Of a DNA stretch of 64,000 bases, positions 21,337 to 64,000 are shown one piece after another (the stretch's first letter is position 1; each line of letters begins with the position of its first letter). The position numbers were made by a program, and so were the translations under genes. Below the pieces are notes generated by a model. The model saw only the letters and a program-made list of their open reading frames with translations. It was not told where the DNA came from and searched no databases. Location: assembly GCA_043821285.1 (NCBI GenBank), contig JBDRCZ010000058.1, positions 18,699-82,698 on the forward strand. The letters run 5' to 3'. Source of the stretch: Candidatus Omnitrophota bacterium. Its GTDB lineage: Bacteria; Omnitrophota; Gorgyraeia; B26-G9; JBDRCZ01.

Positions 21337-21341
21337 AGTTT

Positions 21342-24000: not shown

Positions 24001-24003
24001 TTA

Positions 24004-24087: not shown

Positions 24088-24110
24088 GTTTATTAGGCGG
24101 ATATTAACTA

Positions 24111-24192: not shown

Positions 24193-24353
24193 TTGTATTA
24201 GCGGCAGACTTTGGCAGATCTTCGATTTACCGGGCAAATATTATGTTATTCCACTAACAACAAATATCACTCTTAAATCCATTTTTATCCGTGGGTAATC
24301 CGTGCTTATCCTTGGCCATATTTTATTCTTTTGCCACGGATGAAACGCGGATT

Positions 24354-24719
24354 TTAGTACAGTTTTCCTGGTTTAGAAAATAATAATTGAATATATTCTT
24401 TTAAACGTTTTCTGGTCTCTTCCGGTATTTCCGTAAACATAACCCCGACACGGTATGAAATCTTTTCCGTGTCTTTAGACCTTTTATTTACAAAACTCCA
24501 AACAATTTTTCCTTTAAGAAATAACGGTGACGATTGCCTGGGTAATTCAATCTCGAGTTCAACCAACTCCCCGGGGGTAAACGCTTCTGATACAGTTAAA
24601 CCTACTCCGCCCAGACTAATATCCCGGCTGGTGCAACTGTAGGGTGTTGCTTCTTTTTCTTTCTTATATTTTACGGCTAATACCGTTAATACCCGCGGAT
24701 GCTTGCGTCGTTCCTGCAT
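24354..24719 (-). CDS. PilZ-domain c-di-GMP receptor (paralog)
   Basis: RKHPR and DISLGGVGL motifs. About 60% identical to the 23638 paralog. Confidence 0.8.
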   Translation of the reverse strand: MQERRKHPRVLTVLAVKYKKEKEATPYSCTSRDISLGGVGLTVSEAFTPGELVELEIELPRQSSPLFLKGKIVWSFVNKRSKDTEKISYRVGVMFTEIPEETRKRLKEYIQLLFSKPGKLY

Positions 24720-24801
24720 TTTTTCTCCTTCTTTTTGCCAGTCAGTTATACCGACGGACTAAGTTTGAATATGATAGCAAAAAAACAATAGAATAATAAT
24801 C

Positions 24802-42898: not shown

Positions 42899-44327
42899 TG
42901 TTTATGGGTTTTATCATCGGACGAAATCCTAATCTCTCAACCTTGCCCCAACTCTTAACACCTTGCAATTTTTTAAAAAATGCCAGGATCCGCGAAAAAA
43001 TAACAATCTGACGATACCCGAGGTATTCCAATAAAGAAAAGACTAACATTCTTAAAAACACCCATTTGTTTCTGTATGTTTTAAAGACTACTTCTTCGAT
43101 AATAATCGCACAAACTGTCAACAACATTGTTATCCCTGCCGTGGAAAAGAGAAAAATCATCACGAAATTATAATTAATCACTCCTATTAACAATCCGGTA
43201 ATCATCGTTATAACCCCAGCACATTCCATAATCGGCGCAAACATTTCTCCGGCCGCGTAAAAGGGAAATGAAATAAGTCCTACGGCTTTATATCGCGGGT
43301 TAAAAAACATTATCTTGTGTCTTTGAATTGTATCAATCAGCCCGCGATGCCAGCGTTCTCGCTGTTTGACTAATGATGCTATGTTTGGCGGCGCCTCGGT
43401 CCAGGCAATCGGGTCGGAGACAAATATTACACGACAGCGCCGGCCTTTTTCCCGAAGCTTGCGGTGCATGCGCACGGTTAGTTCTATATCTTCGCCTACG
43501 GTATTTATCTCATAACCACCACACGCAACTACCTGGTCCTTTCTAAAGAATCCAAACGCCCCGGAAATAATCAAATCTCCGCCGAATCTATTCCAGCCCA
43601 GCTTACCAAACAAAAATATCCGCAAGTATTCGATTGCCTGAACTGCCGGGAAAATATCTGTGGGAAAACGCGTACGCATTATTTCTCCCTTCTCGATGTT
43701 ACAACCATTGGCAATGCGTATTGTCCCGCATATTGCAGCAGCGTCCTTTTCGGTCAACATCGCCCTGACCAAAGGCTGCAGCGCACCTTTTTCAATAATC
43801 GTATCCGCATCGACCGCTAAAAAATATCGGCTGGCCGCCACACTTATTCCGACATTTAAGGCATCTCCTTTACCGCCGTTTTGTTTATCGATTAAAATCA
43901 GATTCGGATAAATTTTCGAACGATAACTTTCTTTTATCGGCTGGGTTGCCTTAAAATTGTGTTCGGGCAATTGAATTTTTACCATTTGAAACGTGCTTAC
44001 CAGATATGGTAAAGTGGCATCCGCTGAGCCGTCATTTACAACAATTACTTCAAACTTAGGATAAGAAAGATTTAAAACTGCCTGGACGCTGACTATAATA
44101 TTCGCGGCTTCATTATATGCCGGGATAATAATACTTACTGGCGGGCAATCTATAGGATTCAAAACTTGTTTATCATCTTTGCGGCTTTGTTTATATCGGC
44201 AATATAACTGCGGTATTGAAAGCAGCAAGAGCAAAGCATAGAACGAATTAATCGCCAGAAAATAGCCCAATAAAACATTATTTAGCAAATATACTATATC
44301 ACGCATATCGTTTTTTGTTAGGCTCAA
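42870..44327 (-). CDS. Processive family-2 glycosyltransferase (PgaC / IcaA / cellulose-synthase-like)
   Basis: N-terminal transmembrane segment, IIIPAYNE ... VNDGSAD ... DADT ... QRERWHRG (QxxRW), C-terminal transmembrane bundle. Start TTGA-overlaps or lies 18 nt after the RHS gene stop. Confidence 0.75.
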   Translation of the reverse strand: MSLTKNDMRDIVYLLNNVLLGYFLAINSFYALLLLLSIPQLYCRYKQSRKDDKQVLNPIDCPPVSIIIPAYNEAANIIVSVQAVLNLSYPKFEVIVVNDGSADATLPYLVSTFQMVKIQLPEHNFKATQPIKESYRSKIYPNLILIDKQNGGKGDALNVGISVAASRYFLAVDADTIIEKGALQPLVRAMLTEKDAAAICGTIRIANGCNIEKGEIMRTRFPTDIFPAVQAIEYLRIFLFGKLGWNRFGGDLIISGAFGFFRKDQVVACGGYEINTVGEDIELTVRMHRKLREKGRRCRVIFVSDPIAWTEAPPNIASLVKQRERWHRGLIDTIQRHKIMFFNPRYKAVGLISFPFYAAGEMFAPIMECAGVITMITGLLIGVINYNFVMIFLFSTAGITMLLTVCAIIIEEVVFKTYRNKWVFLRMLVFSLLEYLGYRQIVIFSRILAFFKKLQGVKSWGKVERLGFRPMIKPINTTPLLSFRR

Positions 44328-47300
44328 AAGGGAAGTGGTTCAAACATTATTTTATCCACATACACCGCGCCCGCGGACATAGGCGACCATTCAAAAACAA
44401 AAGATATATTTTTCAGGCACCTTAAGTCAACTCCCTGAACCGCAAAATCTCTCAAAGGAATTCTCACCTTTTCCCACTGGGTTGAAGACTTTAAATACTG
44501 CTCTAAGTTTATGTATTTCCGTGTAGTACCATCATCCAGATACACATTAGGGGTTTCGCTCCCGTGAACCCTTTTGAATTTGAAAGAGAGAACCGGATAC
44601 TCACAAACATCAATATTATTCAAATCTACTATCCATCCCGCCCATGATTCTTTATCTCTTGAAGAGAAAATATCCGCATAATGTAAAAGCGAGCCCAATT
44701 GATCATAAAATGCGTTAATCCGGGCATTATTTGTCTTAAATGTCTTACAATCCCGGCCCCAGACATTCCGGCCAGCTCCGTCAGAACAGTTAGCAGCAAT
44801 TAACGGCACCACATCCATTTCAAAAGTAATATCGTCAATAAATATAACGCCGGTACTGTTTTTGAACCGATTTTCCAGGGTAAAATTAATATTCTCCAGA
44901 GAGGAAAAATCTTCTATTGTGCTAAAGCCCGCCAGAGGAATTGAAACCTTTTGCCACTCATTGGTAATGCCCATGGTTAAATAAGAACCAACCAAAATCT
45001 TATCTTCATGTCCATGCTTATCCATTAACCCCACCTGCACAACCGGGTTATCTATTTCACCCTTTATCCAGAAACAAAGAGTTCGATAAGCCGAGAGATC
45101 AATATTACGTAATAGCTTATAGTATCCGGCATAATCATCTTTCTCAGAAACATCGTAAGTCAATTTTAAACATGGCCCGCGTTCCGAATCATGTTCTATG
45201 GCCGTAGATATTTTGCTGTGAAAATCATTTTTCTGAAATAATCCCGCATCCGGGCCAAGGCCATTGGCATACAGGCTATGCTCAAAACCGGCTACCAACA
45301 AGGCGTCTTTTTTTGCCACCGGCTTTTCTGGAGGGTGTTTATCTTTTTCAATTATGAAATTATCAATGTAATACGTTGCTCCTTTCTTATTTTTGCCATA
45401 AACTAATTTCATGTAACCCTGCGCGTCCCAGTCTGCCATAACCATCTCTTGAATAACAAAGTTATCTCTTCCAACAATCGGGGGGTAGTTTTGCAACAGA
45501 GCATAGAGATTAAAACCGGCGGTATGCCATTTATTATCCACGATTACATTTTCAATCTGTCCTATCCGTTCCATATTCAGGCGCTTATATTCTTTTACTG
45601 CATCCGTAAACTCAATCTCATACCATCGCTCATCCATCTTAACGAGAAAATTAATATTTACCTGTTTTGGTATTTTATAGTCAAACCGAACAGTTGGGTA
45701 TTCTTTGGCATTAAACGGGAGGTCAAAGATTGTACTGGCAAAGTTACCGCCATGGTTTTTATTTGTTAACTTCAGGCAATAACCGCTGTCTAAATCTTTC
45801 CTTTGCTCCAATGTTAAATCAGCGCCAACATCACTATTGCGGTTAGTCCACTGTTCTATGCTCTGTTCAAATGTATTGGCAATCAAAAATTTCTCTTTTG
45901 AATTGATGCTTTTCTTCGATAACCCTAACTGATGTGCTGCGGGTTTATCAGCTGCGTATCTTGACCGGGATAGAGCTGTCCCTAAGTTTATGCCTTCAAA
46001 CACGGCAAAATAGGCATTGCCATGCGGCAGTCCGTGTAAATATGCGCAAAGTTCATTTGCCGCTTTATCAAAAAATGCCGGTAAATACTCCCATTGTTTT
46101 GCCTGAGAGTTGAACGCGTAGATTCCTAATTTTTCTGTGCTTAAATCCTTGAAACAATCCTCTGGAAGCTTTATTCCCAAAGTAGCATCTCTGGTAAAGC
46201 TCTCCCCCGCGGGTCTCATCTCATAGACTTTTCCTACAAGAGCACCCTCCTCGGGGAAAGGCAAGGTTTCATCCTCTAAAGGTTTAATTGTAATTATCCG
46301 AAACGGCTCTCTTAACGCGTGTTCCGGCACATCAAGCACAACCATCCCGTCAGTACTTATGGCTTTCCCCCCATAAATATTTGGGATTACCCGGCCAACC
46401 TCAACGGTCACGCGGTCCTCTGCAACAGCACCATGAATATTCGTTACAAGCAGCCGTATTGTATATACCCCCGCTAAATCTATAGGGTGGTCTTGCTGAT
46501 ACTCATCACCATAGGTATAATTTTTTAACCCGGTATCAAAAGTCGCCAGATTACCATAAATTGTCTGGTCGGATGAATCATCCAACATAACCGGAGCAGT
46601 ATCTTTTAGTTGTGGAATAGTAGATGTGGTAATATTCACCCATTCTCTTGGATTATCACCCTGTCCATAGTCTACACGATACTCTCTAAATGCCTCACCA
46701 TAGGCGACGCCGAAGATAGGAACTTTAGCGCGCACAAGTGCGTCCGCAAAAGGCACAGATATTTTTGCAATTAAGCCATTTGTTTTTTGGACAGCTTTAT
46801 GCTGCTGCGGACGTTTTTCTATACATTGAATAAACGTCGGCTCTCCACAAGATACATCTCTGTTTTGATCTATCGTAATATTCGACATAGGTTCATCAAC
46901 CGGTCCTTCATAATAATCCGGTTCAGGAATATTCTGTGCTATTTCCCATACCGCATAGGTCATCACTGTCCAAGACGCAGCAAATATTCCCCCAAAAATG
47001 TCGCCAGAAGCCAAAAATCCGCCCACAAAACTTGCTGCAACGTCATAATAAAATCTGTTTTCATCAAATAATCCACTTGGATCTGTGAAATTAACCGGAT
47101 TATTTTTTACATAACTATAAAAATTCATTCCCCCCTCGAACCCAATTGGATCAGGGGATAAAAACCTTCCGATTGCCGGGCTATAATATCTCGCCCGGTA
47201 ATAATAAAGCCCGGCCTCAGGCTCATATTCTCTTCCCGTAAACAAGTAGGGGTTGCCAATGCTACTTACCTTATTAGGAACGCCATAGGCATCGTAGGAA

Positions 47301-50300
47301 AAGGATTCTACAACATTCTCTGATTTATCTATAATATTAGTCACACTTCCCATTCCATCATAGCAGTAGAAATAATCCGTACCATTTCTTTTCATCACCA
47401 GTATCTCATCTATTCCTCGACCATAAACATAAGTTGCCTGGACCACACCTCTTTTATCCTTCTCCAGAATAACCCTGCTTTGGTCGTGTATATACTCGGT
47501 TATTGCTGCCGGGGTTATCTTAGAGGTTCTTCTTCCTAATGGATCATATACATATTTAATTATCTCCCCCGGCGTATTTACGCGGATGAGCTGATTTTCA
47601 AAATCATAGGCAAAGGTTGTTATTCCGGAAACCGCAGCAACTTCTATAAGGTTGCCATTGTTATCATAGGTATAAACATCCTCATCTATGTTTGTATATT
47701 GATTTAACATGTTTGTGGTGTATGTAGTGGTATCGCCATTTTTTGTTAAGGTGAGCCGGTTGCCAGCCTGATCATGGGTATATTCTGCTAATTCGCCGTC
47801 CGGCGATATTACTTTACTAAGCTGATAAATATTATCATAAACATACTCGGTCAAACCCTCTGGAGTAATCATGGTCAGTCTGTTACCAACAGCGTCATAA
47901 GTATAGGCAAAAGATGAAATAATTTCTGTGTTAGATTTTCTATTGACCAAAAACCCCAGACGTCCAAGAAAATCATAACTAAACTCAGTATAAACATTAT
48001 GTTGCAAATCCTTTCGGATAACCCGGCTCATGGCATCATAAGTATACGCGGCAATGGTTTGGCTTGAAGAATTTATCTGTATAAGTCTATTCACATCATC
48101 ATAAACATATTCCAGTTTTGTTCCATCGGGATAAACAAGCTGCGTGAGGTTTCCGGTTTTATCATAGCGATAACGTATTTTATCTTTTCCCGGACAGGTT
48201 ACCTTACTCAGCCTATTTGCCCGGTCATACTTAAATCTGAGCACACCGTTTCTGCCTTTTATCCTAATTAAATTCCCATAGTTATCATAGCTAAATACAT
48301 CTTTACGGCCATCAGGAAATATTTTTTCTCTGAGCTTACCTCTGGGGGTATAGCAAAATTTAATCTTCTGGCCATTTCTATCTGTCTTTCGCACTAGATT
48401 GCCTGCATCGTCATAGCGGTAACGTTCTCTACTCCCATCCGGATAAATCACGGTAATAAGATTACCATTACTATCATATGCAAAACTTGTTGTATTTCCC
48501 CGAGGGGTAGTAATACTGGATATTTGATTATATTGCGCTTCATAGGTCAACACAGTAACATTCCCCTGAGCGTCAGTTTTGGTTAAAATATTCCCACGGT
48601 TATCATAAGTAAAAAATATCTGGTTGCCATTAGCATCTCTGGTGCTTACTAAATTAGAATTATTATCATAGACACGTTCACTTATATTGCCTAACGTATC
48701 TTCTTTACAAATAATCAATCCATTATTGTTATAGATATAGCGTGTTTGCCTTCCCATGTTATCTGTCACTTTTTTTTCATGGGAAAGTTCACTATATTCG
48801 TAAAAAAGCCGGTTATTGCCTTCTTCATTGCTATATTCTTTAAGACGGCCATCTTCATATATTGTAAAAAACGTCTGCCGGCCGCAGGGATCACTAATCA
48901 GTATAAGATTGTGTTTTTGATCATAGGCATACGTGGTCTTAAATCCGCCAATATCCGTTACCGCGGATAGATTCCCCTCTTGGTCATATTCATACCATAC
49001 CCTTTGCCCAAATGGTCCTTCTATAGATGTAACTCGATTATTTTCATCATAATAAAAAAAAGTTATTTGGCCTGAGGTGTCCGTGATTGTTTTGAGGCGA
49101 TTATCCGGATCATATAAAAAAACTAATGCATTTCCGTTTCGATCTTCTATACGTGTTAATTTGCCTTGGCGGTTAAAATAAAAGACTTTTCCGTATTTTT
49201 CTGTTAACAGATAGGTGCCGTCAGCATTTTTTGTGAGTATTCGAAAATCACCTTTAGAAGACTCATATTCTCCCGGGGCCTTTGGTTTAAAAAAACTGCC
49301 GGTGCCGTTAGCATTAAATATCTCCACCAGCCCATCGGAGGTTTCTACAACATGCATGAGATAAGTATGCGTCCATCCGTATCCCAAGTATTTATCATAA
49401 CCGGAATACAAAGTATAAACCCTTTCTATTTGCACTGAGATACCTTGGGCCGGCATACTAAAGTCTATTTGGCGAACTAATTGTCTATCCGGGGAAGGAT
49501 TTGGCATTAAGGTAATCACTAAAGAACTATCGCGGATTAGCCGGCCATGGAAATCCGTAAGCTCAATATCTACCGTATAATCCTTGCCAGGATTAAGGTC
49601 CGTGGTATCCCATTGATAAAAAACCGGATAATCCATGGTTAAATTTTGCACACCGCTGTCATACCCATGGGAATTAGAGGTTATTCTTATTGAACCGCTG
49701 GTAATATTCGTTAGGTCAAAATTTCCTCTAACTTCAATCTTGATCATTTTACCGGTAGTATATCTATTGCCGGTCCTGGCAAATAAGCGGGCAACCACAT
49801 CTAAAACTATGGGTTCAGAATAAACCAAGGCACGATTATTATAACCATCGGCAACATAGAGCCATGTACCGTCACCATAAACAGAAATTGGCCCAGAAAG
49901 GCTACTAGCGGTAACCCCGTTAAAATTGCCGGCATTTGTGGAAAAATCCAGCTGTCCAAGAACCGCATCCGCGGACTGATTATTCTCCGTGGGGATCTGG
50001 GCATAGAGCAATATTCGATTATTGGCCTGATCCGCAACAAACAAGGATTCTCCGTTGCTATAAACAGCAAACGGCACATAAAAACTACTTGCACTTACAC
50101 CTCCATTATTTATTACATTCGAAGAAAAATTTGGCTGGCCTAAAACTATGTCCGCGGGTTGAAAATTATTCGTAGGAATTTGATTATGAATCAGCACTCT
50201 GTGATTGCCTTGGTCAGCGATATACACACGTATCCCATCACTAAAAACACGGGCCACTCCCCAAAGACTCTGGCTCGTTACCCCGCCGTTATTTGGGAGA

Positions 50301-51016
50301 TTACTGGTAAAATCCGGCTGGCCAAGAACAATATCCGCCTCCGCAAAATTCTCCGTGGGGATGCTATTATAGATTAACACCCGATTATTCGCAGCATCTG
50401 TAACATACAAGCACACTCCGTCGCTATGCACATCAGTAGGTGCTAATAGACTCTGGCTCGTTACCCCGCCGTTATTTGGGAGATTACTGGTAAAATCCGG
50501 CTGGCCAAGAACAATATCTGCCTCCGCAAAATTCTCCGTGGGGATGCTATTATAGATTAAGACTCGATGATTAAAATGGTCCGCAACATACAAACGTTCT
50601 CCGTCACTATATGCGGCCATTGGGCCCCAGAGGCTCTGCGAACTAATATTGCCATTATTGGCAAGATTGCTCGTAAAGTCAGGCTGTCCAATAACAACAT
50701 CCGCCGGCTGATTATTAGTTGCCGGGATATTATTATAGATTAGCACCCGGTTATTAAAATAGTCCGCGACATACAAGTGCACTCCGTCTGTAGAAACAGT
50801 ACCTGGGCGCGACAAGCTACTTGCACTTAACCCTCCATAGTTACTATCATTAGTCGTAAAATCCAACTGTCCCAACACAAGTTGAGCTTCTTGAGGCTCT
50901 TCAAACGCAAAACTTGATAGGGATGGTGGACTAAGGCATACAACAATCCCGGCCACAATACTTGTAAAAATCATCAAAACTTTCATTCCCGCTTCTTTTA
51001 TGCGATGAATATACAT
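44324..51016 (-). CDS. 2230-aa secreted NHL-repeat plus RHS/YD-repeat protein with an approximately 840-aa C-terminal extension (PKD-like and carbohydrate-binding-like domains) after the RHS core
   Basis: Signal peptide. Six NHL-type repeats ([14 protein letters not shown]). Dozens of YD repeats (YxYDxxGNL). RHS core [43 protein letters not shown] at about aa 1350-1390. Then a PKD-like segment [23 protein letters not shown] and repeated jelly-roll-like segments. AAGGAGAG ribosome-binding site 6 nt before the ATG. Confidence 0.85.
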   Translation of the reverse strand: [2230 protein letters not shown]

Positions 51017-54074: not shown

Positions 54075-57000
54075 TTAGTTGGCCGGGGCAAAAGTGAAAT
54101 AATTGACATTGAAACCACTGACGTCCACAACTAATCTTACGCTATGGTCTCCGGAACTTATATTTACGGTGGGACCATCCGCCCACCCCCAGATCTGCCA
54201 GCCGCCGGTAGCCGGAAGGTTAATCCTGCCAGTTACATTTACGCCATCTATTTCAATATGACACTGACCATCGGAAATTCCCGCATAGCGGATTCTGATT
54301 GTATATCTTCCTCCTTCACTTGCACGGAGTTGATAATTTAGCCATTCACCCGCATAGATCCAGCCAACATTATAGCCGCCTTCCGAGCATACCTCAATAT
54401 CCACTCCTTGGTTTCGATATTGACCGCCGGAATTGACTGCATCAGTGTCGTGATAGTCTCTCTCCGCGGCAGCTACGTGCCCGCTATCGTAGTCCTCAGC
54501 TTCAAATTTGATAACTGCTTTTGCCCCAGGATAACCGTAGACTTCAAATTCCGGGATCCTTACGGCCCAGTCACCGATAAAATTAGGCACCACTGCTCTG
54601 ATTCTCACATAGCGCAGAGTTTTCGGAGAACTATAGCGCTCGGTATTCACCGGGATATCACTATTGTTGTTTATGTGAAACTCCTCTGACCATGGTCCCT
54701 GTAGAGAAGGCGCTGATTCAATATAAAACTCCTTGGTGTTAAAATATGTTGGCTCTCCGCTAGTTGAAGCATGTTTTACCACATAACCCGTTACTTTTGT
54801 ATCTGAACCTAAATCATAAGTTAAGATGTGATCACCATGTGTTGAAATACTATTATGCAGACAGCACCATTTTGTGGAAACATCTCCATCCTTACAATAC
54901 AGACCCCGTTGATTTTCATCATTGTGACCACATTCTATATAAGTAGCCGCATCCAGAGCTAAGTTCCGCTCAAAGCTGAAGTAGTTAATGTTAAATCCTG
55001 AGGAATCCATAATTAATTTTACAATATGATCACCCGCCGTCAATTCTATATCTCCGGCGCTTTTCCATGCCCATGTCTGCCAAGCACCTGTAGCCGGAAG
55101 AGTAATAATTCCGGTTACATCTATGCCATCTATTTCAATATGACACTGCCCATTGGAAACTGCTGCATAGCGGATGTATATCTGGTATTTACCACTAGTG
55201 TCTAAGCGGAATTTTAGCCACTCCCCGGCACTTATCCAGCCAACATTATATCCGCTTTCAGAACAGGTTTCAATATCTACATCCTCTTTCCGGTACTGTC
55301 CCCCGGAATTGCCGGATGTAATATCGAAATAATCCGTACCTTGCGCAGCATTGGCTCCGGCATCATAATCTTCCGCTTCAAACTTAATAGCGCCTTTAAT
55401 CCCTTTATACCCCCAAATCTCAATCTCAGGAATTCTCACAGCCCAGTCCCCGGCATAATTGGGATCAGTAATCCTGATTCTGATATACTGTAAATTCTTC
55501 GGAGTGTCATAAATAAGGGTATTCTGAGATTCCTGATTAGTATTTACCACGTAAAATTCCTGGGTCCAGGGACCTTGCAGCGAAGGTGCAGATTCGATAT
55601 AGAATTTTTCTGTATTAAAAATTGTTGGTTCACCCCCGGTTGAAGAATGTTTAATGATGTAGCCGGTCAAGGTACAAGTCGTGCCTAAATCAAAGCGCAA
55701 AGTATGATCCCCTGATGTCCAAAACCCATTATGCAAACAGCACCATTTTGTAGAGAGGTTACCATCTTTTGCCGCTAACCCATATTGCCCTGGTTCATTA
55801 TGCCCACATTCAACATAAGTAACTGCATCTAACGCGAGGTTCTGTCCGGTTAGTCCACTAATTCCCAAGGAGAATGTATAAGTCCCAGTTCCAGCTGCAC
55901 TATAGACATTAATCCGTATTCTCCACTGTCCAGCCATATCTGCGGTATAAATTATATTCTCAACAACGTTCCCGTCTAAAGCAGCTGATGCTTTTAAGAC
56001 TGCTGTGGGATCATAGAGGTAAAGATCATAGTCATAGTAAGGTGGCGGGGTCATGGATATTGTGATATCCTGACCAGCAGAGACATTAAACGCATAGTAA
56101 TCATTAGGATCTATCCCTTTATCCAGCCAACCCGAATAATTCCCTGGTGAAATAAATGTTGCAGCAGCAAAATCATTACCAGCATCGCTACCGGTGCCGG
56201 CATCATTTTGCCCGGGGGGACCAGCAGAAATTTCTCCCGCAGGATAACGTAAATCTACGGTTTGCTCAAATGCTGTATAAAGGTCTCCGGAGTTGCCATA
56301 GGGATTACCATTATCTTTCCAATATTCAAGCGCATATCCATCCCATGCACTGGCTGCCTGCTGATTATTATCGTACACAAACCAGGTCATACAGATGATA
56401 TCGTGGTTTCCCGCGGTCTGGTTCCAGTTATTAACATCCGCAAACGCATCGCGTAAAAACTGTGCGGTCTGGGCTTCCTCACCTGAATTACCTGGCGCAG
56501 CATACCTGTTCCATTCCGTCATATAAATTGGTTTATTGGAAAATCCTTTACTGTCAATAATTGCAATCTGACTGGCATACACATTGTGAAAATCAGCAAC
56601 CGAACCTCCGTAGGAATGGATTGCAAAACCATCAACTTCACCAGGGGTAAGATAATCCAACATTTGCGAAAGATACTCTGTCCCGCTCATCCATCGCTCT
56701 CCCCCTACTCCTCCAGGGCTAACTGGCGCTAATAAAACAACATGCTCACCAGGCGCACCTACAAGCGCACTATTATGAATTGCGCTGCGCACATTTTTGT
56801 AGATCGCGGCCATTTCTGCCGGCGGAATTTTACGATTTGGCCATTGACTGCCTGTCCCCATCAGCAAGTTTTGCTCATTACCTACCACCCAGATATGGCT
56901 TTGATTATAAAGCACATTTACCGCCTCTGATACCACCTTTGCCGGCCATGCGGAATAATTGGGGTCACTTGGGGCAGGAACCGTATCTCCCCAGGTATAA

Positions 57001-57311
57001 TCTACGCGGGTAATTATCGTCATATTCTTATTATTGTAGAGCTCCTGATAAAGACCTGTAAAATAACCTGCCGCCCACCACCAGCCAGAATTTGTCAGCA
57101 CTGTCTCTACATCCCATGCCGAGCACGCCGGCACATCTAATAAACTTGCCGGGGCATCATCCACCGGCTGTCCTTCTGTATACCCCCACCAATGAATACC
57201 ATACAGATACCGTGAGTCTTCTGCTAATACATCGTTAGAGAAAACTACTATCGAACTAAATACCCCTAACACCAAACACAACATTATTCTTGAAAATCTC
57301 ACACATATCAC
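54075..57311 (-). CDS. Secreted multidomain glycoside hydrolase: GH-A-clan TIM-barrel catalytic domain, PPC domain, then (F5/8 type C - CBM6) x2
   Basis: Signal peptide. VGNEQN (acid/base NE) and MTEWN (nucleophile E) GH-A signatures. Pre-peptidase C-terminal-like segment DPNDYYAFNVSAGQ. Two discoidin-like (KWCCLHN) and two CBM6-like (IKFEAEDYD) modules. Confidence 0.65.
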   Translation of the reverse strand: MICVRFSRIMLCLVLGVFSSIVVFSNDVLAEDSRYLYGIHWWGYTEGQPVDDAPASLLDVPACSAWDVETVLTNSGWWWAAGYFTGLYQELYNNKNMTIITRVDYTWGDTVPAPSDPNYSAWPAKVVSEAVNVLYNQSHIWVVGNEQNLLMGTGSQWPNRKIPPAEMAAIYKNVRSAIHNSALVGAPGEHVVLLAPVSPGGVGGERWMSGTEYLSQMLDYLTPGEVDGFAIHSYGGSVADFHNVYASQIAIIDSKGFSNKPIYMTEWNRYAAPGNSGEEAQTAQFLRDAFADVNNWNQTAGNHDIICMTWFVYDNNQQAASAWDGYALEYWKDNGNPYGNSGDLYTAFEQTVDLRYPAGEISAGPPGQNDAGTGSDAGNDFAAATFISPGNYSGWLDKGIDPNDYYAFNVSAGQDITISMTPPPYYDYDLYLYDPTAVLKASAALDGNVVENIIYTADMAGQWRIRINVYSAAGTGTYTFSLGISGLTGQNLALDAVTYVECGHNEPGQYGLAAKDGNLSTKWCCLHNGFWTSGDHTLRFDLGTTCTLTGYIIKHSSTGGEPTIFNTEKFYIESAPSLQGPWTQEFYVVNTNQESQNTLIYDTPKNLQYIRIRITDPNYAGDWAVRIPEIEIWGYKGIKGAIKFEAEDYDAGANAAQGTDYFDITSGNSGGQYRKEDVDIETCSESGYNVGWISAGEWLKFRLDTSGKYQIYIRYAAVSNGQCHIEIDGIDVTGIITLPATGAWQTWAWKSAGDIELTAGDHIVKLIMDSSGFNINYFSFERNLALDAATYIECGHNDENQRGLYCKDGDVSTKWCCLHNSISTHGDHILTYDLGSDTKVTGYVVKHASTSGEPTYFNTKEFYIESAPSLQGPWSEEFHINNNSDIPVNTERYSSPKTLRYVRIRAVVPNFIGDWAVRIPEFEVYGYPGAKAVIKFEAEDYDSGHVAAAERDYHDTDAVNSGGQYRNQGVDIEVCSEGGYNVGWIYAGEWLNYQLRASEGGRYTIRIRYAGISDGQCHIEIDGVNVTGRINLPATGGWQIWGWADGPTVNISSGDHSVRLVVDVSGFNVNYFTFAPAN
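54078..55880. repeat. Tandem duplication (about 900 bp x2) encoding the two F5/8-CBM6 units inside the GH gene
   Basis: Protein segments at aa 478-770 and 771-1078 are about 65% identical. Confidence 0.7.
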
Positions 57312-57445
57312 CTCTTTTTATTATTCGCAATACGCGGTACGCAATACCCCGAAAAACCGCCTTACAACAACGGGGCACACGCATCACGAATTAATATCTG
57401 TGATCATCCCCGCCACAAATCGTCGGCGGGCAGGTGTGTATAACA

Positions 57446-60400
57446 CTACTCCATATCTCGCTCAACTAAATTTACATCCCACTCATTTATCACCCCATCC
57501 CCATTTACATCCGCCCAGGGCAGGAAGCCATCAATCACAATCTGCCGGTCTTTCTCATCTACTTCTCCGTCGCGGTTTAAATCCGTATGCGGTAGATAAC
57601 GTTCTATATGCACAGTCATTTTATGATAATCAACCTTTACGATCTCAAAATCATCATAATCAATGGTCCCGTCTCTATTTATATCTGCTTCCGGCTTAGC
57701 TGCTGCCCCTTGACTCAAAAATCTTGCAATAACACCAAAATCCGCGATGTTCACCTGACCGTCTTTATTAATATCAGCAATAAGCATACCTTGCTTGCCA
57801 AAATCTATGGAAAGTAAAATCTCGTCAATTGTATTAACCTCATTATCCCCATTAAGATCCGCACGCGGGTCATTAAGGGGAGATTTTTGATAATTATCCA
57901 TGAAGATATATAAATCCGGCATATTTACTGCTCCATCCCGGTTAATATCCGCAAGCAGATATTGCCCCACTGCCTGCCAGACCGTAAAAACACAATTAGC
58001 ATAGCTTCTGCCTGTAGGTGTCTCTACTATAACCTGACCACTGGTTGCTCCAACCGGAACTTTTACTTGAATCTCACTATCTGACCAGCTTAAATAATCC
58101 GTTACCGCTATTCCATTAAAGGTAACTCTAGATGTACCTTGATTTGAGCCAAAGTTCTGACCAGTGATGGTGACCTTAGTGGTAATGTAGCCGCCTGAAC
58201 GGGAAAGGGAATTAACCATAGGTGATGGATAACAGCCAGTATGCTGCGGGTCATGGCAGAATTGTGGCCAAGGAAAATAAGTTTTCTCAACCGCTCCTTC
58301 ATTGTTATGGTCAAGGGCAAATATTTTCCCATCATAGTTAGAAGCAATTACCTCAACATCATTATCACCATCTAAATCCCCTAATGCACAAGTCTGAAGG
58401 GCCCAAAGAGTACCGCCTATAGCAATAGGATATCCCGCGATTCTTGTTCCATCATGATGCCATGCATAAATTGACTTTGAATAAAAAGCCGTAACCATAA
58501 CCTCTAAATCTCCATCCCCATCAATATCTCCAATCACAGGATTAGGCAAAGGAACGGCTACTTCTCTTGGCCATCCGGTAAGTGGCTGACCCAAGTGGTT
58601 AAAGGCTATCACTTGGGTATCCGTGGTATCGATTATATCAAGATATCCATCATTATCTAAATCCGCAACAGCAGGATACGAATAAGGACAAAAATTAGCG
58701 GATGTAGTCTCTATTGGCCAACTACCCTCTACTAAGGACCCATCACCATTAAAGGCATAAAAAAGGTGTTCATCTATATAATAGCCACTCCCGTCGATAA
58801 ATTTACTTTGCTTGATAATAATCTCGTTTTGGCTATCATTGTCGATATCAGCCAGGACAGGCTTTTGAAGAAGCGCTCCTTCTTTAACAAGTTTAGACCA
58901 GACTTCACTGCCATCAGGATTAAAGACATAAAGATAGCCCTGATATGTGGCAATGACAATTTCTAACTCAGGGTCATTGTCAATATTACCCACTGCTGGC
59001 GGGGCACTAATAATTTGACCCAAGTTCTTTGGCCACTGATTGGAATAAAGATTACCCTCGCGATCCCAGACATAGAGTCTATCCCTATTGGAAAATATTA
59101 CCTCTGGCTGGCTATCTTGATTAATGTCAGCTACGACTACTGTCTGAAATAAATTATAGCTTGAACCTCCGGTTACAGCCTGTGGCCATTTTCCATTGAT
59201 AAATTCCGTTCCATCCATATGGAAAACATGGACCGTAGCAGAATAGTACACAATAATCTCATCCCCAGGATAATTCGGATCAATGTCAGCAATAGAAGGA
59301 ATTACGGAGAGGGCATTAATATCAGTAACAATATCTACCGGCCATCCGGGTAAAGGATGTCCCTGGTAATCAAAAACCTCTAACCTCGAAAAAACAGATG
59401 TAATAACCTCCATTCTACCATCGTGATCTAAGTCTGCTACTACAGGATTAGCCTCAACTATAATATCACTCGCTTGAACTGGCCAACCTGCTTGATAATG
59501 AATATTGTTAATCCGGATTAAAACCCGGTCCTCAAACTGATTGCCTAGATTATCAGTTACCACAAGCCGGATTATATAATCCCCTAGCAAACCATGGGTA
59601 TCCCAGGGCAGCAATAAATCACCATTTTCTACTGGGGTGGAAAAGCTTCCCAATGTTATCCAAGAGGTAGGAATTTCACCAACACCATATTCAACTCTAT
59701 AGCTTTGAAACCCTGTTCCATAGGCAGAACCTGTAATGGAAAGAACCCAATTGTCTGTAAGTTCTCCTACATTTATATTGGTCAATGGCGAGGTTATCTT
59801 GGCTACACAAGCGGTGTCAGTTTGTAGAGCTCTATAAGCATTCAGCCTTCCATAGCCTGAGTCTTCATCCCATCCAGGTGCTCCTACATCATCTGCTGAT
59901 GTCCTAAGAACCTGCCGTACTTGTTCTGCATTAAACTCAGGATGTTTGGATAAAATCAAAGCTGCTGCTCCTGCCACATGGGGACAGGCCATTGATGTCC
60001 CTCTAACACGATAATAGTTTGTGTCAACAACATTTTTACCGTCACCATACATATCTGTATTGGAAGCGCGCAAAGAAAGAATATTGGCATATGTTCTATT
60101 AATATCATCCGACCAACTATCTCCTCCAGGGGCAGCTACATCTATCTTTAGTCCATAGTTAGAAAAGTCAGCCTTCTGGTCATTATGGTCGGTTGCTGCT
60201 ACCGTAATTACCTTATTATGATTTGCAGGAGAGTAATAACTTACCTCATCGTTGCTGTTCCCGGCAGCAGCTACTAATACACATCCTATATTATAAGCAT
60301 AATCTAAGACTTCAGTTATAAGTTGAAAATCTGCTGCGCCACCCCAAGAATTACTAATTACATCAGCACCATTGTCAGCAGCATATCTTAAGGCATTGGC

Positions 60401-61438
60401 TAAACTTGATTCATAGCCCGAACCACCATCATCAAGCCCTTTTACTGCCATCGCCTTAGCATTAGGAGCTACCCCAATCACACCTTTAGCGTTGTTACCT
60501 ATTGCCGCAATGGTCCCAGCACAATGTGTGCCATGGCCATGGCCATCTTGAGGATCGTTATCCCCATAAGCAAAATCATACCCGTAGCAGTCATCTATAA
60601 ACCCATTTCCATCATCATCAATACCATTACCAAGAATTTCACCCGGATTAATCCATATATTAGCAGCAATATCTTCATGATTATAGTCTATGCCGGTATC
60701 TATTACCGCAACAACCACTCCTTCGCCCTGGGCAATATCCCAGGCCGGTTCACAGTTTAATTTATCCTGTTTCAATCCCCATAAGTCATCATAGTCCTGT
60801 CCCCAGGCGCCACTTGAGGAATAATACGGATCATTGGGAACCATTTGTATCATGGCAATATAATTCGGCTCTGCATATTCTACATTGGGGTCTTTCTTAT
60901 ATTGCTCACAGATCGCTAAGATATTTGCGTCTTTGTCTTCCATGGTGAGTTTGTAGATATTTGTCAGATTAGGAACCTTTTTATCTTTTGGCGCACGTGC
61001 TGCCCGTTTAGGAAATTTTGCCTTTATCTCTTCATTATAAGCTGTCATACTCATCCCTGTAGACATCATCTTTTTCTTTAAAGCCTTAAATACTGGTGCT
61101 ATTTTCTTAACCTTATGTTTGTAATTAAGGTTATCTATGGAACTAATACCAGTTGCAGTTGTTGATAAACTTAGGTCTACAGGTGTTAATTTTTTATTTA
61201 ATACCTGACCTGCCTCATCTTTAAACTTAACAATTATCTCCCCTGGTGCGTATTCTGGCTTAAGTATTCCGCTTCCAGAATGCTGCCCTCTTATGTCGAG
61301 CGGATCAACTGACTGTTCTCCAGTTGCTGTAAGTTCTTCTTCCTTTACTAATCCTCTTGCCTGCAGGGTTGTTACACCAATAATCACCAACCCTAATATC
61401 AAAACCATTATCATTTGTCTAAATCTATTCTTTCCCAT
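57446..61438 (-). CDS. Secreted subtilisin-like serine protease (S8) with an 8-bladed FG-GAP/VCBS-like propeller, an IPT/TIG domain and 5-6 dockerin-like Ca-binding repeats
   Basis: Signal peptide. I9-like propeptide. Catalytic triad motifs DTGIDYNHEDI, HGTHCAGTIAA, GTSMACPHVAG. Repeats of the form (V/I)ADLDxDG. IPT (VTITGQNFGSNQGTSRVTFNG). DINRDGAVN / DLNGDNEVN / DINKDGQVN / DINRDGTID / DLNRDGEVD / DVNGDGVIN loops. C-terminal tail LPWADVNGDGVINEWDVNLVERDME. Confidence 0.85.
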   Translation of the reverse strand: MGKNRFRQMIMVLILGLVIIGVTTLQARGLVKEEELTATGEQSVDPLDIRGQHSGSGILKPEYAPGEIIVKFKDEAGQVLNKKLTPVDLSLSTTATGISSIDNLNYKHKVKKIAPVFKALKKKMMSTGMSMTAYNEEIKAKFPKRAARAPKDKKVPNLTNIYKLTMEDKDANILAICEQYKKDPNVEYAEPNYIAMIQMVPNDPYYSSSGAWGQDYDDLWGLKQDKLNCEPAWDIAQGEGVVVAVIDTGIDYNHEDIAANIWINPGEILGNGIDDDGNGFIDDCYGYDFAYGDNDPQDGHGHGTHCAGTIAAIGNNAKGVIGVAPNAKAMAVKGLDDGGSGYESSLANALRYAADNGADVISNSWGGAADFQLITEVLDYAYNIGCVLVAAAGNSNDEVSYYSPANHNKVITVAATDHNDQKADFSNYGLKIDVAAPGGDSWSDDINRTYANILSLRASNTDMYGDGKNVVDTNYYRVRGTSMACPHVAGAAALILSKHPEFNAEQVRQVLRTSADDVGAPGWDEDSGYGRLNAYRALQTDTACVAKITSPLTNINVGELTDNWVLSITGSAYGTGFQSYRVEYGVGEIPTSWITLGSFSTPVENGDLLLPWDTHGLLGDYIIRLVVTDNLGNQFEDRVLIRINNIHYQAGWPVQASDIIVEANPVVADLDHDGRMEVITSVFSRLEVFDYQGHPLPGWPVDIVTDINALSVIPSIADIDPNYPGDEIIVYYSATVHVFHMDGTEFINGKWPQAVTGGSSYNLFQTVVVADINQDSQPEVIFSNRDRLYVWDREGNLYSNQWPKNLGQIISAPPAVGNIDNDPELEIVIATYQGYLYVFNPDGSEVWSKLVKEGALLQKPVLADIDNDSQNEIIIKQSKFIDGSGYYIDEHLFYAFNGDGSLVEGSWPIETTSANFCPYSYPAVADLDNDGYLDIIDTTDTQVIAFNHLGQPLTGWPREVAVPLPNPVIGDIDGDGDLEVMVTAFYSKSIYAWHHDGTRIAGYPIAIGGTLWALQTCALGDLDGDNDVEVIASNYDGKIFALDHNNEGAVEKTYFPWPQFCHDPQHTGCYPSPMVNSLSRSGGYITTKVTITGQNFGSNQGTSRVTFNGIAVTDYLSWSDSEIQVKVPVGATSGQVIVETPTGRSYANCVFTVWQAVGQYLLADINRDGAVNMPDLYIFMDNYQKSPLNDPRADLNGDNEVNTIDEILLSIDFGKQGMLIADINKDGQVNIADFGVIARFLSQGAAAKPEADINRDGTIDYDDFEIVKVDYHKMTVHIERYLPHTDLNRDGEVDEKDRQIVIDGFLPWADVNGDGVINEWDVNLVERDME

Positions 61439-61607
61439 CTTCCCTCTCCTCCTTATTTTTTGCTTCGCAAAAAATAGAGCAATTGATAATTGACAGTTCC
61501 TGCCTGCAGGCAGGGAAAATAAAATGTGCCTTCTATTGCTCAGTTTTTTATTTCCAAAGCAGTTCTCTACACTATATACTATATCCTATATACGACATAC
61601 GATTAAA

Positions 61608-64000
61608 CTACTCCATATCTCTCTCAACCAAGTTCACATCCCACGCATTTATCACCCCATCTCCATTTACATCTGCCCAGGGCAGGAGCCCATCAATTAC
61701 AACTCGCAGGTCATTTGTATCTACACTGCCGTCGCGGTTTAAGTCCGTATCCAGCAAATAGCGCGTTATATCAGCGATAGTCTTAGTAAAATCCACTTTC
61801 ACAATCTCTAAGTCATCAAAGCCAATATTTCCATCTCTATTTACATCTGCCCGCGGCTTAGCTGATACACTCTGTCCAAGAAATTCTGATAGAATATCAT
61901 GATCCGCTATATTGACCTGTCCGTCTTTGTTAATATCAGTAATAAGGGTACCTTGCTTAAGATAATCCTTCATCAGCAAGCCAAAGTCTACGATATTTAC
62001 CTGCCCATTACCATTGATATCCGCTCGAATGCGCTCAGGATCAATCATCGCTCCTATTTTCAAATACTGGCTGACTAAGATGCCAAAATCAGCTATATTT
62101 ACCTGTCCATCCCGGTTAATATCACTAATCAGATATTGTCCCACTGCCTGCCAGACCGTAAAGACCTTATCTGTATTACTTGTGCCAGTAACTGTCGCTG
62201 CCACAACCGGGCCAATAGTTGTTCCAGCAGGCACCTTAACCTCTATCTGGTTACCTGTCCAACTGAGATAATCCGTTGCCTCAACGCCATTGAAGGTAAC
62301 TTTGGATGCACCTTGAGTGGCGCCAAAGCCTTGGCCGGTAATGGTAACATTGGTTTGGATATAGCCTTGGTTGGGATAAAGGGAAGAAATAATCACTGTC
62401 GATCCTGAATATTCTGCATGTAAAGCAAGTTCAGGATCTCCAAATAAATTGAGTTCAAGATAACACAATCTGTTCTGATTATAATTTAAATAGGGAATAT
62501 TATCTTCTTTAGAATCTTGATTTGCCCTGCCCAGATTTAATATGCCCTCCCCTAAAACCGCATCCCAGAATTGCCGGTTATAATACTGCGAAGAACCGTT
62601 AGTCGAATTCAGTACACCATACCCATAGCGAGAATTACCAATAAAGGCAAAAGCCCCATACCTGCCAGTAGTAAGATGTTCAAGGATACAGTCATTTGGT
62701 AAAAAATACTCTTGTGCATATGGTGCACGATTATTAAAAGCACCTGCATAGCAGCCCTGACTATAGCCAAAGAAATATTCTTCGTTATTAAGCATGGTAT
62801 CTACATCACTATTGCTCATCTTCATTATATGCGTTACGTTGGCGTGACCCAAATGATTAATAATATGTACATGATTATTAAGGATATTGATTAAATCTTC
62901 TTTAGGCCAAGAATAGTCTTTATCATATAGAGTTTTTACATCAAAAAAACTGTTGTCTACAAAACCAGTGGTTGTGTAGCCGTGATTATCAGAGCCTAAT
63001 CTAATCTCCTCCATATAATCAGCACCATAAGTAGGAGGATCACTTGCCCATAATAATTCACCTGCCATATAAACATTTTGCAGGTAAGAAGAGTTAGAAT
63101 TATCATAGGCAATGGTTTTATTTACAAAATTCTCAACCTCGGTAACCGAATCAACAGGCGCCCTTCCCACATAAACCTCCGCCAGTAAATCTATCTCTCC
63201 GCCGGCCACTCCATCGTTGTATGAGCCATAACGACCATCGCCATCGTAATCAAAACTACCATCTAAACATGCATAATAGAGGTCAGAAGCATGATAATAT
63301 AGAACCCTTGCAGGAATAATATTATCTCCACTCTCACCACCCACATCTGCTCCATCACCATCACCACCTAAAAGCACATACTTCGTATGCCAGTTATGGT
63401 AGGCATCGATAATGAAATTGCGGATTTTTGTCTGATTATCCACTCCCCCATCGGGTCTAGTCCCATCGTAGTGGGCATATATCCATTCGGTAGTTACCAT
63501 GGTTGCGGTGATACCTTTTTCTATCTTATAATCAATAAGCGGCTGAAAGGCATCGCTAAATTCCTCTTTGGTGATAAGCACATATTGATAATTACCCGGG
63601 GCAGCAAGGGTAGTTAATGTGCTTTCTGTCTGGATCGTCGCCGCATTAAGTTCGATAATATTTTCTTCTTTATTATAAGTACTTATCGTCTGGGGATTAT
63701 CGACATATTCAAGTAATCTCTGTTTATCATCATCCATGGCACGCAATCTTTGCTTTATCTCTGTAGGAGAAATGACCTCTCCTGTAGCACTAAGGGTTCT
63801 GGCCACTAATACGGGTTCGGTAGTTACGATTAACGTCATACTCCTATAATAGGCAAGCCTTCCTGAAAGAGGACAATACTCTACCGGATGAAGATTTATA
63901 ACAGCAATATCATAGCCAAGTATCACCTGTTTGGTCGGTAATTTAGCTACGCGGATATCTGGATATATATCGTCTCTCTCGTATATTCCCTTATTAGGTA
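61608..64000 (-). CDS. Clan-CD cysteine peptidase, gingipain (C25)-like, with an IPT/TIG domain and dockerin-like repeats. The 5' end lies beyond the window.
   Basis: GHANVTH (catalytic His) and YSQGCYAGAF (catalytic Cys) caspase-fold motifs. IPT (VTITGQGFGATQGASKVTFNG). Six DxNxDGxVN loops. Identical tail LPWADVNGDGVINAWDVNLVERDME. The reading frame stays open from 63926 to 64000, so the true start is upstream of the window. Confidence 0.75.
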   Translation of the reverse strand, partial: PNKGIYERDDIYPDIRVAKLPTKQVILGYDIAVINLHPVEYCPLSGRLAYYRSMTLIVTTEPVLVARTLSATGEVISPTEIKQRLRAMDDDKQRLLEYVDNPQTISTYNKEENIIELNAATIQTESTLTTLAAPGNYQYVLITKEEFSDAFQPLIDYKIEKGITATMVTTEWIYAHYDGTRPDGGVDNQTKIRNFIIDAYHNWHTKYVLLGGDGDGADVGGESGDNIIPARVLYYHASDLYYACLDGSFDYDGDGRYGSYNDGVAGGEIDLLAEVYVGRAPVDSVTEVENFVNKTIAYDNSNSSYLQNVYMAGELLWASDPPTYGADYMEEIRLGSDNHGYTTTGFVDNSFFDVKTLYDKDYSWPKEDLINILNNHVHIINHLGHANVTHIMKMSNSDVDTMLNNEEYFFGYSQGCYAGAFNNRAPYAQEYFLPNDCILEHLTTGRYGAFAFIGNSRYGYGVLNSTNGSSQYYNRQFWDAVLGEGILNLGRANQDSKEDNIPYLNYNQNRLCYLELNLFGDPELALHAEYSGSTVIISSLYPNQGYIQTNVTITGQGFGATQGASKVTFNGVEATDYLSWTGNQIEVKVPAGTTIGPVVAATVTGTSNTDKVFTVWQAVGQYLISDINRDGQVNIADFGILVSQYLKIGAMIDPERIRADINGNGQVNIVDFGLLMKDYLKQGTLITDINKDGQVNIADHDILSEFLGQSVSAKPRADVNRDGNIGFDDLEIVKVDFTKTIADITRYLLDTDLNRDGSVDTNDLRVVIDGLLPWADVNGDGVINAWDVNLVERDME

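Follow-up and report, generated by a model that had tools for sequence, protein, structure and literature searches.

The same cassette is found on three neighbouring Omnitrophota protease genes, namely an S8 subtilase and a C25 peptidase inside the window (the whole stretch of DNA analysed, 64,000 nucleotides) and P0137 just outside it. In the shared region, a conserved junction (VFTVWQAVGQY) links a TIG domain to three type I dockerins in tandem. On balance we favour its interpretation as a mobile, non-catalytic docking cassette that tethers the neighbouring proteases, the last F-hand of which forms the conserved tail of both window proteins.

The initial annotation had read the two genes as adjacent secreted proteases and had proposed an HMM scan; the open reading frames, which adjoin on the minus strand, bear out this assignment, and TIG, dockerin, S8 and C25 domains all score above their Pfam gathering thresholds. 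The subtilase gene (57446..61438, minus strand; 1330 aa; NCBI MFH1777297.1, P0014, from a Candidatus Omnitrophota MAG) encodes, in order, a signal peptide, a fervidolysin-like prodomain, the S8 catalytic domain, an FG-GAP β-propeller region, the TIG domain and three dockerins, with Pfam scores of 224 bits for Peptidase_S8, 84 for FG-GAP_3, 36.8 for TIG and 51.2 for Dockerin_1. Its predicted Sec signal peptide (residues 1–27, MGKNRFRQMIMVLILGLVIIGVTTLQA; 61358..61438, minus strand) displays, upon inspection of the translation by eye, a basic n-region, a hydrophobic core and an LQA motif. The catalytic domain (residues 238–530; 59849..60727, minus strand) matches PF00082 over its full length (profile positions 1–288 of 288, E = 2.9e-66), and the translation contains motifs for the triad residues Asp (VIDTG), His (HGTH) and Ser (GTSMA). 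FG-GAP_3 matches the FG-GAP/VCBS-type propeller region in three stretches (approximate limits, residues ~640–1047; 58298..59521, minus strand), and the S8-propeller architecture recurs in more than 100 homologues identified by homology search. Further Pfam hints of FG-GAP and Beta-prop_CGLA were seen in this region. A terminator-like hairpin and T-run follow the S8 stop codon (57357..57373, minus strand), and a counterpart 3' of the C25 gene is absent.

The gingipain-family C25 cysteine peptidase gene (61608..64000, minus strand; ORF 61608..>63998) is open at the window edge, a truncation already noted in the initial annotation and now resolved by the full 912-aa protein (NCBI MFH1777298.1, P0135), of which 796 codons lie inside the window. 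Among the 116 N-terminal residues beyond the edge are a signal peptide and some of the C25 propeptide, and in the full protein Pfam recognizes both Propeptide_C25 and Peptidase_C25. The catalytic domain (62421..63584, minus strand) again matches its profile over the full length (PF01364, positions 1–374 of 374, E = 2.7e-61) and contains candidate catalytic His (HLGHAN) and Cys (SQGCYAG) motifs.

The cassette common to both proteins spans ~265 C-terminal residues, and in a BLASTP alignment the last 292 aa of the two are 56% identical (E = 5e-96). An IPT/TIG domain followed by five to six dockerin-type loops had been suggested for each protein; Pfam and the loop positions establish for both a single TIG domain plus six loops of the DxNxDG type. 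The TIG/IPT Ig-like domain occupies residues 1073–1152 of the S8 protease (57983..58222, minus strand; PF01833, E = 4e-9, 36.8 bits) and 62169..62393 (minus strand; PF01833, E = 1e-9, 38.7 bits) in the C25 gene, against a cut-off of 20.9 bits. The six loop/helix repeats, equivalent to three type I dockerins, extend over residues 1164–1330 of the S8 protease (57449..57949, minus strand), where they match the cassette profile at 1–187, and over 61611..62123 (minus strand) of the C25 gene. Dockerin_1 matches these arrays in two to three stretches at 51 bits (S8) and 71 bits (C25; 70.8 bits in three stretches), the cut-off being 22.9 bits. Judged from their sequence, the repeats would be Ca2+-binding loop–helix F-hands (DxNxDGxxxxxD followed by a helix). 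Structural comparison gave a similar picture. When searched against the PDB the cassette profile matched solved dockerins (E = 1e-6 to 1e-3), and in an AlphaFold model of the C25 cassette, built upon an input alignment of six sequences (pLDDT 74.6), each of the six loops is followed by one helix; the model including the TIG domain reached a pLDDT of 32. The top Foldseek matches to the cassette model were the C. thermocellum double-dockerin of S8 protease Clo1313_0689 (PDB 8x39) and single dockerins, among them 2y3n_B (rmsd 1.3 Å over 57 columns, target-normalised TM 0.84), and X-module-dockerin (XDoc) complexes also appeared among the matches. Among the three paralogues, conservation is highest at the TIG-dockerin junction.

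A profile search of 1.84 billion proteins found full-length cassette matches only in P0014, P0135, P0137, P0138 and P0134, and an alignment of the six cassette copies stays in register, each copy retaining all six loops. The suspicion that more family members lie past the window edge proved correct: the contig that carries both genes (91,280 bp) also encodes P0137 (MFH1777300.1), a PD40/C25-like protein whose accession number follows that of the C25 gene by two and which likewise bears the cassette of TIG domain and six loops. Here the cassette is internal (residues 189–374 of 1338), with another dockerin (the fourth) and a C25-like domain beyond it. P0134/P0138 is a C25 homologue, 45% identical, with at least four tandem cassettes and a C11 protease at its end. 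P0121, an S8/propeller homologue, itself carries a cohesin domain, while P0136 and L092 contain tandem Dockerin_1 arrays resembling those of Omnitrophota giant proteins; long arrays of this type match the cassette profile weakly, repeat by repeat. S8 proteases carrying 8–10 tandem dockerins occur in Patescibacteria, likewise ultra-small host-dependent bacteria.

The last 25 residues of the two window proteins, LPWADVNGDGVIN(E/A)WDVNLVERDME, match at 24 of 25 positions, in keeping with the near-identical tail first reported. In the S8 protease (LPWADVNGDGVINEWDVNLVERDME; 57449..57523, minus strand) the tail runs from a linker through the sixth Ca loop (DVNGDGVINEWD) into the last helix, and its C25 equivalent (LPWADVNGDGVINAWDVNLVERDME; 61611..61685, minus strand) was delineated by translation, BLASTP and the AlphaFold model, which places a helix at residues 176–186 of the cassette. 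The tail is thus the sixth F-hand, the end of the third dockerin, rather than a separate signal. An earlier proposal treats it as a novel C-terminal signal for secretion or anchoring, comparable to T9SS CTDs or PEP-CTERM; in its favour are the tail's position at the very end of both window proteins, the 24 matching residues and a tail dN/dS of ~0.06. However, the segment has the canonical form of a dockerin loop with its helix, is acidic (net charge −5/−6) and hydrophilic with no transmembrane stretch, and matches none of the sorting-domain models of Pfam and NCBIfam. Moreover, once the third paralogue is included, conservation of repeat 6 does not exceed that of repeats 4 and 5 or of the junction. 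Since P0137 and every tandem copy of P0134/P0138 have the homologous segment at an internal position, the tail does not constitute a novel C-terminal sorting signal; these internal occurrences already largely refute that proposal, to which we assign hardly any probability.

A second explanation for the near-identity of the tails, namely that it stems not from selection but from recent duplication or recent gene conversion involving the two genes, also fared poorly. In its favour, the last 81 nt of the genes are 90% identical, the longest exact DNA match in the whole cassette (23 nt) falls at the TIG-dockerin junction, and the proportion of synonymous differences in the tail (pS 0.375; six differences in 16 synonymous sites) is somewhat below the 0.58 of the remaining cassette. 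This last difference is not significant (binomial p = 0.078), and whereas a recent conversion tract would show dS close to 0, the tail has a dS of 0.52 (dN 0.033), the last 26 codons differing at eight nucleotides, of which six are synonymous changes. Divergence across the cassette is higher still (dS 1.04, dN 0.28). In the DNA alignment similarity fades no more than a few bases from the stop codon, and ungapped identity over the 60 nt downstream of the stops is 30%, the chance level, so that the downstream flanks are unrelated; the similarity once perceived in the 3' flank arose because the coordinates given for it overlap the last coding codons. Recent exchange is accordingly very unlikely. 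The tail dN/dS of ~0.06 points to purifying selection, and these sequence comparisons suggest that the cassette spread long ago through domain duplication or shuffling (dS ~1) and has probably been maintained through purifying selection on the protein.

How might such a cassette function? The proteases would be exported via Sec, as their visible signal peptides suggest, and Ca2+ binding would then allow the dockerins to fold and to hold endopeptidases of both classes, serine and cysteine, on one shared partner at the cell surface. This partner may be a receptor or scaffold of the cohesin type or some other surface ligand. Proteolytic activities would thereby be kept together close to the cell, substrate or host. 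In this scheme we infer Ca2+ binding, the crossing of the outer membrane and the binding partner. A tenable though rather less probable alternative dispenses with cohesin, the dockerin array acting as a Ca2+-stabilised adhesin or spacer that either binds a non-cohesin ligand (a host or prey surface protein, glycan or S-layer) or distances the catalytic domain from the cell. The same role has been proposed for 'non-cellulosomal' dockerins. Indeed, none of the ORFs in the 64-kb window showed a cohesin domain, and homologous S8-propeller-dockerin genes in other genomes have housekeeping neighbours, with no cohesin found nearby. In the Omnitrophota literature searched (PMC10066038; bioRxiv 10.1101/2023.11.21.568195) dockerins, including those of giant proteins, are seen as 'non-cellulosomal' adhesin-like repeats, and a cohesin scaffoldin is unreported. 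The long dockerin arrays of the Patescibacteria proteases, and the cassettes forming a long linker between C25 and C11 protease in P0134/P0138, would also suit a spacer. On the other hand, all solved bacterial dockerins matched here bind cohesin, family member P0121 has one, and the absence of cohesin near the two genes pertains to 64 kb. The presence of one cassette on three distinct proteases in a single cluster also fits a shared specific receptor.

Proteolytic complexes resembling cellulosomes have been proposed before (PMC8542988, PMC6461901, PMC12484212), dockerin-bearing S8/C25 proteases and multi-dockerin proteases having been described in Clostridium thermocellum and Cloacimonadota, and the shared cassette is a variant of this known way of tethering enzymes. 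The best Foldseek match, and also a match in the PDB sequence search, is Clo1313_0689, a subtilisin-family protease with tandem type I dockerins (dDoc_0689; PDB 8x39/8x3a; Chen et al. 2024). As this work is summarised in a review (PMC12484212), the C. thermocellum double-dockerin protease binds the cell-bound scaffoldin ScaD, and cohesin-mediated anchoring of the protease at the cell surface was proposed. That protein, however, belongs to a Firmicute cellulosome producer with known cohesins and has two dockerins rather than three and no TIG domain, whereas here a single cassette is shared by three proteases, drawn from two catalytic classes, of a diderm Omnitrophota bacterium, with cohesin seen for none. 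[quoted passage not shown] In the uncultured anaerobe Ca. Stygibacter (Cloacimonadota), signal-peptide-bearing S8/S53 serine and C25 gingipain-like peptidases likewise carry C-terminal dockerins, and together with a cohesin scaffoldin were read as a biopolymer- and protein-degrading complex (PMC8542988). There the scaffoldin (3,755 aa, with tandem cohesins) was found, in contrast to the cohesin-free window, and a TIG plus triple-dockerin cassette is not described in that paper. The 'planctosome' of freshwater Planctomycetes (Nemodlikiaceae) is similarly a hypothetical non-cellulolytic cohesin-dockerin assembly tethering peptidases at the outer membrane, but it involves metallopeptidases (M12B, M14), single dockerins, and cohesins in anchoring and adaptor proteins (PMC6461901). 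An Ig-like β-sandwich directly N-terminal to a dockerin is also typical of X-module-dockerin dyads (type II/III, e.g. CipA XDoc), and the XDoc of an R. flavefaciens cysteine peptidase binds ScaE (PMC12484212); the Ig-like domain here is TIG/IPT according to Pfam and not an X-module, so that this is a resemblance only. Within the same phylum, tandem Dockerin_1 repeats occur on extracellular giant proteins (bioRxiv 10.1101/2023.11.21.568195; PMC10066038), but these form long generic arrays, unlike the defined six-loop unit found here on proteases of ordinary size.

The S8 subtilase gene (57446..61438, minus strand, 1330 aa) and the adjoining C25 peptidase gene (61608..>63998, minus strand, open to the window edge) were described in the initial annotation as sharing a C-terminal module, and this is correct far beyond chance, with the last 292 residues of the two proteins 56% identical (BLASTP, E 5e-96). 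The S8 protein (P0014) is 100% identical to NCBI entry MFH1777297.1 ('MAG: S8 family serine peptidase [Candidatus Omnitrophota bacterium]', encoded on a 91,280-bp contig), and the full C25 protein (P0135, MFH1777298.1) has 912 residues, including a signal peptide and a C25 propeptide. The proposed domain assignments are likewise upheld by Pfam matches that all exceed their gathering thresholds. Specifically, the S8 protein contains Peptidase_S8 (224 bits, profile positions 1-288 of 288, with the DTG, HGTH and GTSMA motifs of the Asp/His/Ser triad in the translation), FG-GAP_3 repeats, TIG (36.8 bits) and two stretches of Dockerin_1 (51.2 bits). Its neighbor contains Peptidase_C25 (208 bits, positions 1-374 of 374, preceded by Propeptide_C25 in full-length P0135), TIG (38.7 bits) and three stretches of Dockerin_1 (70.8 bits), the cut-offs being 20.9 bits for IPT/TIG (PF01833) and 22.9 bits for type I dockerin (PF00404). 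The C25 protein also has candidate His and Cys motifs, whose catalytic assignment is by inspection only, and signal-peptide-like sequences were recognized by eye at the N-termini of the proteases. Identification of the C25 protein as a PorU-type T9SS sortase was rejected, as its PorU match of 59 bits falls far under the cut-off of 420.

Beyond the TIG domain, each protease displays six DxNxDGxxxxxD loops conforming to the F-hand duplication of dockerins, in which paired 12-residue Ca-binding loops (D1, N/D3, D/N5, D12) are each followed by a helix. An AlphaFold model of the dockerin part, based on a six-sequence alignment and of moderate confidence (pLDDT 74.6, pTM 0.57), shows every one of the six loops followed by a helix, the last helix spanning residues 176-186 (WDVNLVERDME). 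The fold of this model resembles that of solved dockerins. Its top Foldseek match in the PDB is 8x39, the crystal structure of a double-dockerin module from the C. thermocellum S8 protease Clo1313_0689, and the other best matches are single dockerins, among them 2y3n_B with an rmsd of 1.3 A over 57 columns and a target-normalized TM-score of 0.84; as each target spans only a third of the query, the Foldseek E-values are weak, at about 1e-2. Profile-versus-PDB sequence matches are also exclusively dockerins. Thus, the shared cassette is a TIG domain followed by three tandem type I dockerins, and the C-terminal 25 residues common to both proteases are the sixth F-hand. The position of the Ig-like TIG directly before the first dockerin, with a junction 69% invariant among paralogues, bears a resemblance to the X-dockerin dyad of type II/III systems, in which an Ig-like X module packs on the dockerin and contributes to cohesin binding; the AlphaFold model of TIG plus dockerins from a two-sequence alignment was of unusable quality (pLDDT 32).

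The final 25 residues, LPWADVNGDGVIN(E/A)WDVNLVERDME, differ at one position between the S8 and C25 proteins, and had been put forward as a possible new C-terminal secretion or anchoring signal. Such signals are defined by an obligatory location at the extreme C-terminus together with either a beta-sandwich CTD or a motif followed by a transmembrane helix and a basic tail. The tail is acidic (net charge -5/-6), hydrophilic and helical in the AlphaFold model, and does not belong to the T9SS CTD, PEP-CTERM or LPXTG-type classes; Pfam and NCBIfam searches found no T9SS, PEP-CTERM or similar sorting domain. Moreover, homologous segments are internal in P0137, a third protease of the same contig (...PWADVNGDGQVNILDITLIERDLPFITGDVNFDGD...), and in every tandem copy within P0134/P0138, a carrier on another contig (...RADVNLNGYINSYDANLVIRDMIKSQ...). 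On the internal copies, the dockerin fold and the acidic composition, the reading as a sorting signal was rejected. Conservation does not single out the tail either, since among three paralogues 57% of positions are invariant in the sixth repeat, against 53-58% in repeats 4 and 5 and 69% at the TIG-dockerin junction.

A second suggestion, that recent duplication or gene conversion keeps the module uniform, fails on the synonymous divergence, which is not low. By the Nei-Gojobori method the S8 and C25 cassettes differ with a dS of 1.04 and a dN of 0.28, and the last 26 codons with a dS of 0.52 and a dN of 0.033, from eight nucleotide differences of which six are synonymous and two are not. The tail does not lie significantly below the rest of the cassette in synonymous divergence (binomial p = 0.078), and the longest identical DNA stretch in the cassette measures 23 nt. 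Nor does DNA similarity continue into the 3' flanks as had been reported: the ungapped identity of the 60 nt downstream of the stop codons is 30%, the chance level, the alignment fades no more than a few bases past the stop codon, and the coordinates assigned to the flank overlap the final coding codons. As judged from these substitution patterns, the spread of the cassette is an old duplication or domain shuffle held by purifying selection. The three paralogous cassettes of the contig resemble each other more closely (64%) than they do the copies of the other contig (46-50%), a likeness that fits spread inside the lineage.

A profile of the 187-aa dockerin part, searched against 1.84 billion representative proteins, returned 3132 matches at E <= 1e-3, nearly all of them generic dockerin proteins, and only five full-length high-scoring ones (P0014, P0135, P0137, P0138 and P0134). 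The expectation that further family members lie past the window edge was confirmed by P0137 (MFH1777300.1), located on the same contig two accession numbers past the C25 gene, in which PD40-like repeats are followed by TIG and then, at residues 189-374 of 1338, by the six-loop unit; beyond this lie one more dockerin, the fourth, and a C25-like domain of divergent sequence. Several dockerin-bearing enzymes predicted to be secreted, as cellulosome-like (cohesin-dockerin) multi-enzyme systems have them, are encoded in this genome, three proteases (P0014, P0135, P0137) on one contig. P0138 and P0134, annotated as two partial proteins, are halves of a single gene on contig JBFMHJ010000109.1 (locus L105, 1686..7226), split by a 100-N scaffold gap (4645..4744) inside a collapsed repeat. 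This gene encodes, in order, a C25 propeptide, a C25 domain, TIG, at least four tandem six-loop units and a C11 clostripain domain, and P0138 is colinear with the window C25 protein (45% identity over 906 residues). Dockerin_1 is matched in four stretches of P0137 and eight of P0134, and an alignment of six copies of the six-loop unit is in register, every loop being conserved. The contig of P0138/P0134, with a GC content of 0.31-0.36, is binned in a Candidatus Thermoplasmatota archaeon MAG (GCA_040753035.1), a label that may reflect mis-binning or cross-domain transfer. Scans of genome collections and metagenomes with the cassette yielded no relatives of it; all that they retrieved were TIG domains, arrays of generic dockerins and a single giant-gene fragment from Omnitrophota (L092), and in the metagenome relatives the TIG part alone was matched. 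Word-index homologue searches returned only generic short multi-dockerin proteins, and as they missed P0014, P0135 and P0137, all present in the collection, their silence is no argument for rarity.

How the cassette functions must be weighed against these data. In the reading we favor as the probable one, it is a docking or tethering element predicted to bind a specific receptor that is most likely cohesin-like. The proteases would be exported, their dockerins would fold with Ca2+ and tether the enzymes to a common partner, and this tethering would bring serine and cysteine endopeptidases together on the cell surface. P0121, an S8-propeller homologue, itself carries a cohesin, and the closest structural match of the cassette is a dockerin module of a clostridial protease. 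The rival view of the cassette as a cohesin-independent adhesin or spacer is possible and clearly the less likely of the two; it sits well with Omnitrophota studies in which dockerins are regarded as non-cellulosomal, adhesin-like repeats (PMC10066038; bioRxiv 10.1101/2023.11.21.568195). A cellulosome-like system would also include a scaffoldin or anchoring protein with cohesin domains, and no match to Cohesin (PF00963) was found in the 37 ORFs scanned across the 64-kb window. The S8-FG-GAP-dockerin homologues at three loci of other genomes (L103, L106 and L107) occur singly amid housekeeping genes, one of them between mreB and mreC, with no C25 neighbor and no cohesin gene within 10 kb, and these three neighborhoods, as well as that of the S8-cohesin homologue, contained no conserved S8/C25 pair and no adjoining cohesin gene.

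A bolder and improbable proposal holds that TIG and the six-F-hand 'triple dockerin' form a self-contained new superdomain working without any cohesin, a grappling module, dependent on Ca2+, with which predatory or host-dependent Omnitrophota would fix serine and cysteine proteases on the surface of a partner or prey, and which was possibly exchanged with archaea. Were this so, the Thermoplasmatota-binned contig, the only other carrier, would reflect gene exchange between bacteria and archaea. Returning to the tethering role, the presence of one TIG and triple-dockerin cassette on three adjacent proteases points to co-localized surface proteolysis, and the cassette (about 190-265 aa) offers a concrete bait for its receptor. 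If these genomes are without cohesin, it becomes a tractable case for establishing what 'non-cellulosomal' dockerins bind.

The literature already contains S8 and C25 proteases that bear dockerins, proteases with several dockerins, and 'proteolytic cellulosome-like' complexes. Dockerin-tethered proteases are known from clostridial cellulosomes and have been proposed for Cloacimonadota and Planctomycetes: Ca. Stygibacter (Cloacimonadota) encodes S8 and C25 peptidases with C-terminal dockerins alongside a 3,755-aa cohesin scaffoldin (PMC8542988), the 'planctosome' of freshwater Planctomycetes is a further precedent (PMC6461901), and triple to septuple dockerins occur in other bacteria (reviewed in PMC12484212). 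New here are the phylum and the defined TIG and six-loop unit, for which 1.84 billion representatives yielded only two sources. Also new are its occurrence on three adjacent proteases and, on a contig binned as archaeal, the tandem copies of it that link two cysteine proteases. Dockerin-tethered proteases would thereby be extended to Omnitrophota, an ultra-small, partly predatory or host-dependent phylum whose surface machinery is poorly understood. In six proteins of the Patescibacteria group (P0139-P0143 and P0148, ~1100 aa), a membrane anchor at the N-terminus and an S8 protease at the C-terminus flank 8-10 tandem dockerins; proteases with multiple dockerins seem to recur among bacteria that are ultra-small and host-dependent.

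Directly downstream of the S8 protease lies a gene (54075..57311, minus strand) for a secreted 1078-aa protein with a weak glycosyl-hydrolase core, a PPC domain and two units of discoidin plus CBM6/CBM35, in which no dockerin was found; it shares its domain vocabulary with 'dockerin-type' giant proteins of Omnitrophota (bioRxiv 10.1101/2023.11.21.568195). An RHS/YD-repeat protein of 2230 aa (44324..51016, minus strand) has its RHS-associated core at residues 1241-1316, followed by ~900 aa with CBM11/CBM30-like matches and no short toxin domain. A gene for an N6/N4 DNA methylase is overlapped by a fragment of a TdeIII-like restriction endonuclease, with two PilZ-domain ORFs nearby (20962..22943 and 23641..24758, minus strand). 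The window, which encodes a TonB-dependent receptor and many Fe-S proteins, fits a diderm anaerobe. Its minus strand holds 28 of the 31 ORFs of at least 150 aa over the 64 kb, and GC skew is uniformly negative throughout, reaching its strongest values (-0.33 to -0.36) in the stretch with an ORF rich in AAA domains (2..9097, minus strand, at least 3032 aa, open to the left edge). This ORF contains two ClpB-like AAA_2/D2-small units and an AAA_5 domain of the dynein/MoxR type, and may belong to a giant gene of the Omnitrophota type.
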